Shown here: positions 7,749 through 51,400 of the stretch, in pieces
How positions within the stretch are numbered: position 1 is the first letter of the stretch
Layout of the letters: every line of letters starts with the position of its first letter
NCBI GenBank assembly: GCA_964016885.1
Contig: OZ024759.1
Location: forward strand, 22,940,001 to 23,004,000
Direction: 5' to 3'
Source of the DNA: Eledone cirrhosa
Lineage: Eukaryota
Length of the DNA stretch: 64,000 nucleotides
Notes under the pieces: model-generated
The model's database searches: none
Told to the model about the DNA's origin: nothing
Seen by the model: only the letters and a program-made list of their open reading frames with translations
Position numbers and translations under genes: made by a program

Positions 7749-7930
7749 TATAGATGAGATTCTACAGGACTAGAACTGTTTCATTCTTTAGAAATTCCTG
7801 ATGATTTCTAAAGAATGAAACAGTTCTAGTCCTGTAGAATCTCATCTATATTAAAACTTTTATACTCTGCAATGTATTGAGTACCTTACTTACTGTGGTT
7901 ACCTCCGATTCAACCCGGAATAACGTACTT
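7749..7930. mobile_element. Palindromic element with hammerhead core and TTGAGTAC tail
   Basis: ~47-bp perfect inverted arms; CTGATGA-tttctaaagaat-GAAAC-agttcta-GTC; stem I not evident; related copy at 9600-9790. Confidence 0.55.
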
Positions 7931-9418
7931 ATATATATATGTTATATATCTATTAACACCCGTGCGTGACTGGTACTTTATTTTATCGACCCCGTAAGGA
8001 TGAAAGGCAAAGTTAACCTCAAATCCCGCCGAGGTTAACTTTCCCTTTCATCATTACGGGGTCGATAAAATAAAGTACCAGTCATGCACTGGGGTCGATT
8101 CAATCGACCTTCCCCTCCCCCAAGAATTGCTGGCCTTGGGCCTATATAAGAAACCATTATATATGTATGTTATATCTATTATGTATATATATATATATGG
8201 AGAGAGAGAGAGAGAGAGTGAGTCTGCGGTTCTGACAATGGGGAGACCACTAATCATTTGAGTACTCAATGTGTGGGGAGATGTAAAATCCCGATCGTTT
8301 AGCCCTATGCTCCAGATTCCCTCCTCACTGTGTGTGTGTGTATATATCACAGCTTCGATTTTACTAACCTTACAATCGTATATATATATATATATATAAA
8401 AGAATACACATGAGTACATATCATACATATATATATACACATATATGTGAGAGCATAAAAATAATTGAAAGTGGATAAATTCACTCGTATTTTAACAAAA
8501 GTGCACTGAAGCTCATTATACTATATATCTCTTAATCGAAACGATTGTAGAAATAGATGGTTTTACCAAGTACAGCCTTTGGTTATTTTCTCTGAATTAT
8601 ATATATGTACATACATATATATATATATATATATATATATATATATATATATATATATATATATACTCATATATTCATATATATATATATACTCATATAT
8701 ATACTGTATAAAACGTTATATAACATATGGTGCGTAGAAATAGCAAGGTGTTGATATGCTTTACTAAATAGTTGTTTCCTATCTCTTACTGACACAGGCT
8801 CCGATACCATTAATCATACAATATGCTATTTGATAGTCTTAACTCAAGGGGAAAGCAATGATTAGGTAACTGTACATATTCCACTACTTATTCCAGTCAA
8901 CATTGCCTGAAATAGATCCTAAAAGGTAAATCGCTTTTCAATTATATGAAGTCAGTTGAATTATTTCCACCTTAATGGTGAGAAGTTGTTAGAGAAATGA
9001 CACTAATTCGTTCAAACGGTGTACCAAGAGAAAATTTCTCCTTCATCAAAGGTTTCAGTGTAATCAATTTTGTTGGATAACATTCAATTTCACTCTTCCA
9101 GGACAAAACCGTAGCTTCGTTGATGAATATAAACCCGTGTAAAAGTATTTCGATCAAGCATATATCCGGTTTAGCAACGGCTCCATACTTTTAATACAAT
9201 GTTACCTCAAAAGTTCATAAACGCACGATTGACGATTTTTGCTTCACAACTATGAGATTTTTTTTGTTTTCTAGGTGAGGAGCTGTTTACTTCACTTTGG
9301 ACCCAATTTTGGGTGTGAAATTCGATAGAAGGGACATCTCCGCAAGCCCCACTGGATGTACTGTAACTGTAATCCAAGGATCGTATGCTCCTCACCATGA
9401 TGACTCAATCTGATCCTG

Positions 9419-48400: not shown

Positions 48401-51400
48401 GGACTATGTATGCGCCTTGCACTGGAGAAACACCAGGACTGGCTTTACTGTAGCACCGGCTCAGAGCAGGAGACTTAAGGCGAAAAAGATATCGGATGCT
48501 GAATTTGCCGACGACATAGTTTTGGTGACAAATACAGTGAAGGAGGTAGAAGATTTGATGCAGGACTGTATCGATGAGTGTGGGGCTGAGAATTAATGAG
48601 ACTAAAACAAAATGTCTGGTAGAGAATGTAGAGAAGCTAGAGGGGATCACTAATGTAGGCGGGAAGCTGCTAGAATTGGTTGAGGGCTTCCTGTATTTGG
48701 GAGCAAAGATTGGGAATACAGAAGATGATTTGGTTGAGAGAAAGAGCAAAGCCTGGACGGCGTGCCACAGCTTGAGATATATACATATATATATGCATAT
48801 ATATTATTTATGTTCATACATGGAACAAAGGCACTATCCAAGGTTTCAAGGCCCAAATTTGAAAACAAGAGGCGTCAAAATAATTACCTTTCTTCTGGCG
48901 CTAATACGAGTCATGGTCAACAGAGAAAAACAACCTACATTTACACACTACTATCCCAAGTATTGAGTACTCTGCTAAATAATGGTCTTACTAGTTTAAA
49001 ACAGATATAATATATATATGAGTGTCTGTGTGTGTGCGTGTATATATATATATATATATATATATATATATATATATATATATATATATATATAGGCAAA
49101 AGGTAAATGGAAACAACAAAGCAAACAACACAGTGCAATGAAGAAATATATTAGTTCAACGCTTGATATAGTAGGCAAAGAGTCTTAATATTTCATCAGA
49201 AGATAGAATGAGACATGAAAGATGTGTCTATTCAGTCAACCATTTACATATATCTGAACATATATTAATAATATGTGTGTGTGCGCACATACACACACAC
49301 ATTACATATTCTATTAGAAATAATGTGTTTTGCTCAAGATTAATGGCATGGCTTGATACTTAAGCATAAGCAACAAGGACATTGCTTTTTAGTCCTGCTA
49401 GGGACTTGCTTATGGTCAGCAATACCATGCATTGCAAAAAATGCTGCACATCAAGCAATGCCTGTGCTTGAAGCTTTTTTAATTGAGGAAAAGCTTTCCA
49501 CAGTGCCAATCCACTCTCTGAACATCGATTGCATTGGCCTAAAAAGAAGAACTGGTCTACATCATTGGATGCAAACAAAGTCGCAGGTTTTATACCAGAA
49601 AGACCCTCTCCGAGAGAGATGTTTCCAAGACTAGGAATCTCTTACTCCACAAAAGGAAAAAAAAAACGAAAATATTTATAGGACGGCTGTTGATTCTTCA
49701 AATTCTCCACTCTTTGACAGGTTTTGTGTTTCATCCCACAGGGTGTCCAAAATCACCCACCTTACCAAGTAAGCTTGGTAAGGTTGCCGGTTTAGTCGCC
49801 GACAATCCGGCCATACACAGGTTTTACTGGATTACATGTTATCAGTAGTGCTGGTAACATGCAACCATACATACATAAATATACACAATGCATAGCTACA
49901 TATGTACATACATATATATACATTATAAACAACATGTACATACATATCTACATACCTTATAAACAATATGTACATATATATATATATATATATATATATA
50001 CATTATAAACAATATACACATACATATATATACATTATAAGTATGTATAAGAGTGAGAAATGAAATTTCGTTTCATTTTTTCCATTTATATATACATTAG
50101 AAACTATTTATAAACTATATGTACATACATACATATATATATATATATATATACATTATAAACAATATGTACATATATATATACACATTATAAACAATAT
50201 GTACATACATACAATGCATACATATATAGATACACACATACATACATGCATACATACATACATACAATACATACATATGTAAATATTTTCCATCATAGAA
50301 CCACAAGCTAGGAACAAACTCTCTCTGCCATTTGTCAGTCAATAACTTCACCAACCATCAATCTATTCAATTCCAGACATTTTTTTAAAATGGCGTACTT
50401 ACACGTGAAAGAGGTAGCCATATTGTATCTAAAGTAGGAAATATCGTTTTACAATGAAGACTAAATATAAATTCTCCACTCAAGACACACTATCCATTGG
50501 CAAACAATTTTCTTCCCCAAACGCAAATAATTCATTAGCCCCCCAATGTCTGTTATGCTTCATATTTCAAAGCTATAGATGGCTATATATATATGTGTAT
50601 GTGTATATTTATGTATATGTATATATATATATATGTATATATATATACATTTATATATATATATATATATATATATATATATATTATATATATATATATA
50701 TATATATATATATATATATATATATATAGTGTATATAAATCATATATGATATTTTTGAAACAGCTACCATCCATTGAATAGCTATGAGGCTATTACTGGC
50801 AAAAATGTGAGAATAACTTAGGTCATGTAGCCATTAATGTTTTTATTATTAACATTATTATTCCTACCCTTGTTTCTCTAGCTCAATATGCTAAACTTGC
50901 ATGCCACTGCAGCATGAATAAATTCAAATACAAGAAACTAATGTCCGAACAATATAACAACCATCATTTATATAAATACATAATATATATATATATATAT
51001 ATATATATATATATATATATATATATATATATATATATATATATATAGTCTGTGTGTTTGAAATTTGTAGAAATTTGTAGAAAAAAAACAAATTCCTACA
51101 AATTTCATACTTGGCGACCCTATATATATATATATATATATATATATATATATATATATATATATATATACATATACGAGGCGGTGTCACAAATTTCCTC
51201 GCTTTAAGGGTATCACAAAAGGGTAGAGCTGTTACCTTTAGAGTGGAGGTAGGACGGCTACAATGTGACTGAATCTGAGAGGGGAATATGTTGAATAAAA
51301 TCATAATTAACAAATCATCCTGTATTTGCTTTTACCGAAACCCAGGAACTTTTTAGCACCTTATCATCATCATCATCATCATTTAACATCTATTTTCCAT

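Follow-up and report, generated by a model that had tools for sequence, protein, structure and literature searches.

We analyzed the octamer TTGAGTRC, which a preliminary description had placed 3′ of hammerhead ribozymes, in a 64,000-nucleotide (nt) stretch of Eledone cirrhosa DNA (GCA_964016885.1, contig OZ024759.1, positions 22,940,001 to 23,004,000, forward strand; hereafter the window). Rather than being a linear word, the octamer makes up the 3′ arm of a hairpin with a bulge, of the form NCUC-[stem]-UN-GAGN'-NC. The hairpin is a real, clade-wide cis element, not found in the searchable literature, of Penelope-like elements (PLEs) whose protein marks are those of the Hydra clade. Copies of these elements end a few bases before the first (hairpin 1) or the second (hairpin 2) of two hairpins in the leader, and that the hairpins mark both genomic ends we hold to be practically certain. 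Judged from sequence, they are probably RNA docking sites that set where reverse transcription starts.

The motif and its fold

TTGAGTR was found by direct sequence check at all nine sites listed in the preliminary description, each on the strand given there; two of them, 13227 and 19817, end in ...AT and ...AA, which its wider formula allows. The window holds 11 copies of TTGAGTRC against 3.43 +/- 1.83 expected, a number reached in 0 of 100 shuffles, while a repeat finder run over the whole window was dominated by microsatellites. A (TA)n run lies 37-81 nt 3′ of the motif at 9/9 sites. At five of the nine (7877, 12314/12321, 12950/12957, 13227/13234 and 28350/28357) there is a recognisable hammerhead core upstream on the same strand, which would cleave 40-114 nt 5′ of the motif. 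Of the other four, 9740 and 45030 show only decayed or partial pieces and 19817/19824 and 48963 none.

The genome-wide check of strand enrichment that the preliminary description had called for was run on this 3.0-Gb assembly, to which all genome-wide counts refer. A hammerhead core followed after 60-90 nt by TTGAGTR gave 17,220 matches versus 991 with a reversed-pattern control, and the motif on the strand opposite to the hammerhead gave 1,394 versus 367; enrichment was thus found and the claim survived. A structure-based search of stretches picked irrespective of the motif gave 141 hammerheads, of which 40 had THGAGTRC 30-130 nt downstream on the same strand. For the same hammerheads it was found 0 times downstream antisense, 0 times upstream sense and 4 times upstream antisense.

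The preliminary description had overlooked its pairing 5′ strand and several further copies. ACTC lies 5′ of most window sites and the bases between both arms pair, with a spacer between the arms of 6 to >50 nt; at site 12314/12321 the fold is retained despite an upper stem lengthened by ~45 nt. The pattern TACTC-N9-18-TTGAGTRC occurs 47,060 times genome-wide versus 803 for the reversed control. In a loose set of 110 collapsed candidates, a few of them from this genome, for which only CTC and GAG were required, the bulge U was present in 95, the trailing C in 85 and the next U in 87. The second bulge base was free in the 81 candidates having both bulge U and trailing C (U 48, C 21, A 9, G 3), and upper pairs 1-4 were Watson-Crick in 69/81, 51/73, 38/55 and 27/42, compared with 38.5, 21.8, 13.7 and 11.8 after shuffling. 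With respect to covariation, 5/8 pairs changed on both sides in 38 aligned hairpins and the three core pairs were invariant. The outer pair of these hairpins was G-C, A-U or U-A, and the closing pair alternated between U-A and C-G in ~4 separate clusters of a 19-protein tree, as judged by eye. A sequence-free search for stems with a two-base bulge on the 3′ side recovered the core in 35 sense-strand hits, and the core was not among the top antisense classes of that search.

A covariance model built from the 38 hairpins, including four window copies, found 8/9 of the listed sites at expectation values (E) up to 10 and added window copies whose bulge is TC or TA or whose arms read GCTC/GAGC. In a scan against Rfam 15, the gathering score was reached by none of the best 150 of 304 matches, and these 150 were mostly microsatellite matches to microRNA models. 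A peptide-coding motif was rejected, as spacer lengths are not divisible by three and the hairpins come before the ATG.

Carrier elements, twin hairpins and genomic ends

The motif families lead into an open reading frame (ORF) for a reverse transcriptase (RT) with a C-terminal GIY-YIG endonuclease, on the hammerhead strand, and an inverted copy frequently lies at their 5′ end. Tandem copies run from the 3′ untranslated region (UTR) through hammerhead, hairpin 1 and hairpin 2 to the ATG. An intact ORF of 809 amino acids (aa; locus L144) has DKT, RxRW, CxCX5C, CxxC and CxH, and no CCHH. As in the published Hydra clade, a single ORF joins RT and GIY-YIG, DKT replaces DKG, the CxCX5C linker, CxxC and CxH are present, and CCHH is lacking (PMC8557442). 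C659, C661 and C667 are invariant. The RWK motif of the clade appears as RxRW with a K after it in 80% of 41 rows, and with T, I or R in that place in some families here. Also shared are a sense hammerhead in the pseudo-long terminal repeat (pLTR), insertion at (TA)n targets and an inverted pLTR with a one-sided tail (PMC8557442). By these protein marks we assign the motif carriers to the Hydra clade, the tree at hand being one of 19 relatives without reference PLE proteins. The preliminary description had spoken of unrelated families; this has to be corrected, since all motif carriers tied to an ORF are Hydra-clade PLEs. They differ from the clade description in size, at ~3.6 kb or more versus "generally <3 kb", and in number, the clade being described as small whereas this genome holds >100,000 hammerhead copies of one class (PMC8557442).

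That class comprises 101,249 hammerheads genome-wide, a very large and apparently recent expansion, and one family's RT gave 49,107 first-look candidates, with many intact frames of 820-830 aa. A predicted Hydra protein structure had a mean predicted local distance difference test score (pLDDT) of 84.9, and its best fold match was to telomerase RTs (E 5e-8). Within the window no Hydra protein remnant was found.

The hammerheads have the type I core CUGANGA / GAAA / UH with stems I-III by structural descriptor, and self-cleavage is putative. When 188 hammerhead copies were clustered into 22 groups, the large groups bore the hairpin and five groups, together 22/188 copies, lacked it. One of the five, a tandem hammerhead family of ~430-nt units with 10,644 copies genome-wide, had the motif in 0/30 copies (L339-L368). 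This repeat is non-coding and fits the non-LTR retrozyme kind, defined by non-coding tandem hammerhead units; motif families B, C, D, G and Z fall outside that definition, leading into ORFs.

An alignment-based scan for relatives gave 79 metagenome loci and 10 genome-contig loci, of which 33 had an intact ORF with its start and 19 of these 33 also an upstream hammerhead. The 19 foreign leaders contained 36 hairpins, versus 1.07 in shuffles, with two hairpins in 15 leaders, three in 1 and one in 3. The feet of both hairpins lay 54-83 nt apart in 20 leaders. Hairpin 2 lies 20-63 nt before the ATG, and in this genome it was located ahead of the ATG in families B, C, D, G and Z. A loose twin-hairpin pattern gave 2,856 genome-wide matches versus 1,327 in the control, a ~twofold difference, and served to fetch examples rather than as a count. 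Among published Hydra consensuses inspected by eye, both hairpins were seen in Hydra-1_Ajap and hairpin 1 in Hydra-2_Ajap and Hydra-2_Amil. The accessible text of the Hydra-clade description makes no mention of the hairpins (PMC8557442), and no description of them was found in open-access and bioRxiv full text. No relative was found in viral contigs, or in metagenome contigs scanned with a single protein. Hydra PLE contigs in bacterial genome bins (L298-L307), including bins of animal symbionts, are likely host DNA contamination.

One could suppose that the motif is a functionless product of shared ancestry or of chance in AT-rich repeats. The ORF-linked carriers do all come from a single clade, and a few very numerous families swell the copy counts. 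However, although flanks and loops cannot be aligned from one family to the next, the pairs show covariation and relatives from other organisms also have the motif in duplicate, so this explanation is already contradicted and we find it scarcely credible.

With respect to genomic ends, 67 of 118 copies from six families ended at -20..+2 of the foot of hairpin 1, most commonly at -2, -4 and -7. Of the remainder, 5 ended earlier, 5 broke within the tail (by eye, these reflect subfamily divergence) and 41 extended past +45. The second end, where known, lay ~3-8 nt before the foot of hairpin 2. In foreign 3′ copies, 8/14 ended 0-4 nt before a foot, one of these at a contig end. The notion that the short ends were long copies split by microsatellite expansion was rejected, as a hairpin lay past the TA run in only 1/67. 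Since copies end a few bases before either hairpin, the optional tail of PLEs is the stretch between the two feet. It measured 54-98 nt or more here, whereas the published tail is 30-40 bp and was ascribed by Craig et al. to endonuclease-mediated resolution (PMC8557442).

Among 21 outward-facing inverted pairs, exactly one tail was present in 19, none in 1 and two in 1 (binomial p 1.1e-4 for the 19, against an independent even choice). The tail fell on the long and the short arm equally often, 3 to 3 among 7 resolvable pairs of which the seventh was tail-less. The four inverted insertions in the window had one tail each, as read by eye. This use of one of each hairpin suggests that both subunits act from one leader.

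The preliminary description had offered three roles for the motif, namely an RT/endonuclease recognition site, a promoter element or a tertiary contact of the ribozyme. The first fits an element that is folded, covarying, present twice per leader and with feet at both ends. The other two are disfavoured because the hairpin comes in two copies, is linked to the ends and is missing from 22/188 hammerhead copies in five families. A motif serving transcription, translation or the hammerhead, with the match to the ends secondary, would suit the position of the hairpin in the 5′ leader, where hairpin 2 precedes the ATG in the region of reported PLE promoters, and the fairly constant distance from hammerhead to hairpin. 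Such a role leaves the two sharp end classes at the feet and the one-of-each rule unexplained and does not agree with a 10,644-copy hammerhead family devoid of the motif; we consider it very improbable.

A candidate signal for the start of reverse transcription

For PLEs, the closest retroelement relatives of telomerase RT, the choice of template and start has been addressed by one in vitro study, which gave two internal starts and no signal. The hairpin is a concrete, clade-wide candidate of 20-35 nt for such a signal, with exact mutational predictions and candidate residues. In the mechanism we propose, the RT-endonuclease protein of the element would bind each hairpin and its endonuclease would nick the (TA)n target. 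The freed 3′ end would then pair with a U/A-rich patch that lies 2-10 nt before the hairpin on its 5′ side, so that complementary DNA (cDNA) would start at this patch, inside the transcript. If a dimer sat on hairpins 1 and 2, each target strand would serve as a primer, and the product would be an inverted insertion whose 54-98 nt tail is confined to one end. One rule would account for the one-sided tail and the inverted ends, and the origin of the PLE tail becomes directly testable. The hairpins would also be a simple means to fix element boundaries.

The system assayed in vitro is Poseidon_Ac, in which RT starts internally at two sites bounding the tail, 3′ of the hammerhead; the RNA 3′ of these starts is required, both strands of AT-rich DNA are cut and a dimer is predicted (PMC11167929). 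The hairpin system would resemble it in two internal, tail-bounding starts 3′ of the hammerhead, a need for RNA 3′ of these starts and a predicted dimer, and resembles it in its AT-rich target. Poseidon_Ac differs in belonging to another clade and in having its starts within the ORF, in an "AC-rich stem loop", and the accessible text names no repeated guide element (PMC11167929). The 96-nt Poseidon_Ac RNA of Fig. S1 in that source lacks the CUC/UN-GAG core. Two GGC..GCC mini-hairpins 41 nt apart were noted by eye in the printed RNA, as a lead only, and it is possible that they are a twin guide element of another clade (PMC11167929).

Structured RNA is used elsewhere to seat an RT on its template. 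RT-binding stems in R2 3′ UTRs, telomerase RNA and hepadnaviral epsilon all act in this way. The present case differs in having a pair of identical elements, situated 3′ of two proposed internal starts, with apparently one use of each per insertion.

The core may also have a defined tertiary structure. By analogy, R-U-N-G-A-G paired to C-U-C-Y could form a U.A-U triple with an arginine pocket, as in the trans-activation response element (TAR) of human immunodeficiency virus (HIV), read by a conserved RxR; we rate this as plausible, somewhat short of an even chance. In HIV TAR the triple is U23.A27-U38 and arginines read G26 and G28, and in engineered TAR binders the arginines are spaced i, i+2 (PMC6189040, PMC7864049). 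The hairpin agrees with the arginine sandwich of TAR and 7SK in having a paired purine, a bulge U, a free spacer and then G-C, A-U and G-C (PMC6189040, PMC7864049). The bulge pyrimidine thus follows a Watson-Crick pair and precedes G-C and A-U, as an arginine sandwich demands; bulge U and A-U pair are invariant, the spacer base is free and no covariation of the triple was found. It differs from TAR by circular permutation, with the bulge on the 3′ strand, a core that reaches the foot and a conserved unpaired C-U after it; this is a likeness without evidence of homology. Candidate readers are two RxR motifs, one at 508/510, where a flexible linker ends, and one at 35/37; their positions are Arg in 95-98% of 44 proteins.

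The assignment of the signal to RT rather than to endonuclease, and to RNA rather than to DNA, is something we infer, and the main rival concerns exactly this. The hairpin might act in DNA, as cDNA or extruded duplex, being recognised by the GIY-YIG endonuclease, which would cut a few bases upstream and resolve an intermediate into the two ends. This would fit the ends equally well and agrees with the proposal of Craig et al., and work cited by Frangieh et al. found that Penelope endonuclease needed tail sequence in plasmid DNA (PMC11167929). The wobble bias is also weak, with G.U versus A.C at internal stem positions only 6 to 2. Against it, an arm spacer of 6 to >50 nt with covarying stems excludes recognition of a plain duplex, the bulge sits on one fixed side, that of the transcript strand (35 sense and none among the top antisense classes), and in the one PLE assayed the tail boundaries are RT starts on RNA (PMC11167929). 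We regard action in DNA as unlikely. A second possibility is that the hairpins are passive barriers which leave the UA-rich bases 5′ of them single-stranded for priming, with no sequence-specific protein contact. The 10 nt before the foot are indeed U/A-rich, with TAT or ATA in 61/81, and ends fall at the nearest TA microhomology, -2 to ~-15 depending on family. Any stem would do for such a barrier. The core, bulge U and trailing C-U have nevertheless persisted among elements whose proteins are only ~35-40% identical, and we think a passive role quite improbable.

Several results weigh against docking on RNA at twin hairpins. The rows of the 38-hairpin alignment were chosen for pairing at the outer and closing positions, which are 2 of the 5 changing pairs. 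Since the three core pairs are invariant, covariation supports neither core pairing nor the proposed triple, and no C.G-C swap of that triple was found. The 6-to-2 wobble bias means that sequence supports RNA over single-stranded DNA only weakly. End positions are blurred by TA microhomology, and 6/14 foreign 3′ copies ended outside -4..0: 2 at +3 or +4, 2 reaching the ATG, 1 stopping mid-tail and 1 weakly aligned. A single hairpin was seen in 3/19 foreign leaders, both hairpins of family Z lack the trailing C, and by eye two published Hydra consensuses deviate from the core, one of them at the bulge U and A-U pair. Hairpin 2 of family A, the family of the 7877 copy, was not found with two genome patterns (1 match versus 1 control, and 10 versus 13), and the link of family A to a Hydra ORF is no firmer than probable.

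Extending the docking proposal, twin TAR-like hairpins could load both subunits of a telomerase-related dimer on one RNA, each priming one (TA)n strand at its own internal start. Twin guides could then underlie the tail and inverted ends of PLEs in general, with other clades relying on twin motifs of their own, and a portable 30-nt signal might program the start of RT. We offer this wider scheme tentatively and think it doubtful.

Copies in the window and family variants

The hairpins and associated arms in the window are as follows.

7864..7884, plus: hairpin 1 of family A; ACTC, a 9-nt upper hairpin with a G.U pair, TT bulge, GAGT and AC
7798..7836, plus: type I hammerhead of the 7877 copy, predicted cleavage after 7836; the tail stops at a TA run ~45 nt past the motif
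7753..7790, minus: inverted partner arm of the 7877 copy, tail-less, ending at (TA)n before hairpin 1; partly by eye
9728..9747, plus: decayed hairpin 1 of a family-A relative, E 0.5; upstream only hammerhead stem III remains
10024..10118, minus: tail-bearing inverted arm of family B with a TC-bulge hairpin 1, E 0.064; overlooked in the preliminary description
10200..10288, plus: hammerhead arm of the 10024..10118 insertion, ending at (TA)n before hairpin 1
12314..12375, minus: long-stem hairpin 1, upper stem extended by ~45 nt, fold computed; hammerhead 12436-12485
12646..12673, minus: hairpin 1 of another family, with a 5-bp upper stem; absent from the earlier list
12950..12971, minus: hairpin 1 of family B; hammerhead 13015-13064, tail-less inverted partner ~13100-13153 (plus)
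13227..13248, minus: hairpin 1 with one upper-stem mismatch and a TTCG loop; rearranged hammerhead 13289-13337
19817..19882, minus: decayed long-stem hairpin 1, arms by eye; missed by the covariance model, no hammerhead seen
28350..28376, minus: hairpin 1 of family C; hammerhead 28430-28483, tail-less inverted partner 28704-28803 (plus)
45012..45037, plus: hairpin 1 of family G; copy 5′-truncated within the hammerhead
48945..48970, plus: decayed hairpin 1 of a family-G relative, one core mismatch, E 0.058
3595..3629, minus: GCTC/GAGC hairpin with TA bulge, 3′ of a hammerhead variant, E 1e-4
3428-3463: weaker second hairpin match beside 3595..3629, E 0.32
2979..3042, plus: long-stem hairpin 1 with TC bulge, followed by tail and (TA)n, E 0.012
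1522..1556, minus: GCTC-type hairpin with one core mismatch, 3′ of a hammerhead at 1688 (minus), E 0.017

From 30 hairpin-bearing ends observed in 580 kb of randomly placed stretches, there may be ~150,000 in this genome.

At 8258-8269 a palindromic double match was seen, its minus strand a decayed hairpin of a family that is intact in locus L180 and its plus strand the mirror image. A near-perfect inverted repeat with hammerhead-like words at 63154-63244 is probably a minimal inverted pLTR pair.

With respect to family A, one upstream stretch has the end of a sense Hydra ORF ~2.7 kb away, across microsatellites. Locus L196 was rejected as a family-A parent, being a chimera of a family-Z leader and ORF with a family-A 3′ end (L196:1600-4600). 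The family-G hammerhead (L310, L319-L321, L325) has a U3-A8 core variant, read by eye, and a stem II of ~55 nt, is predicted to cleave after GUC and escapes core-based scans; a U3-A8 core variant has been described previously (PMC4209133). Hairpin 1 of family G and its flanks also form tandem arrays of ~50- and 63-nt units (L312-L314, G000:C1:81256814-81259215), which are possibly products of repeated template jumping by RT. In family Z (L379-L408) the hammerhead core starts with CCGA and not CUGA, the tail is longer than elsewhere, at >100 nt, and the 3′ UTRs vary in length, some being >1.3 kb.

Minisatellite arrays lie in the window at 16708-17363, 25262-25973 and 40610-41814, with periods of 47/95, 45/96 and 87 nt, and a copy-like stretch of the 87-nt unit adjoins the hammerhead arm at 28.8 kb.

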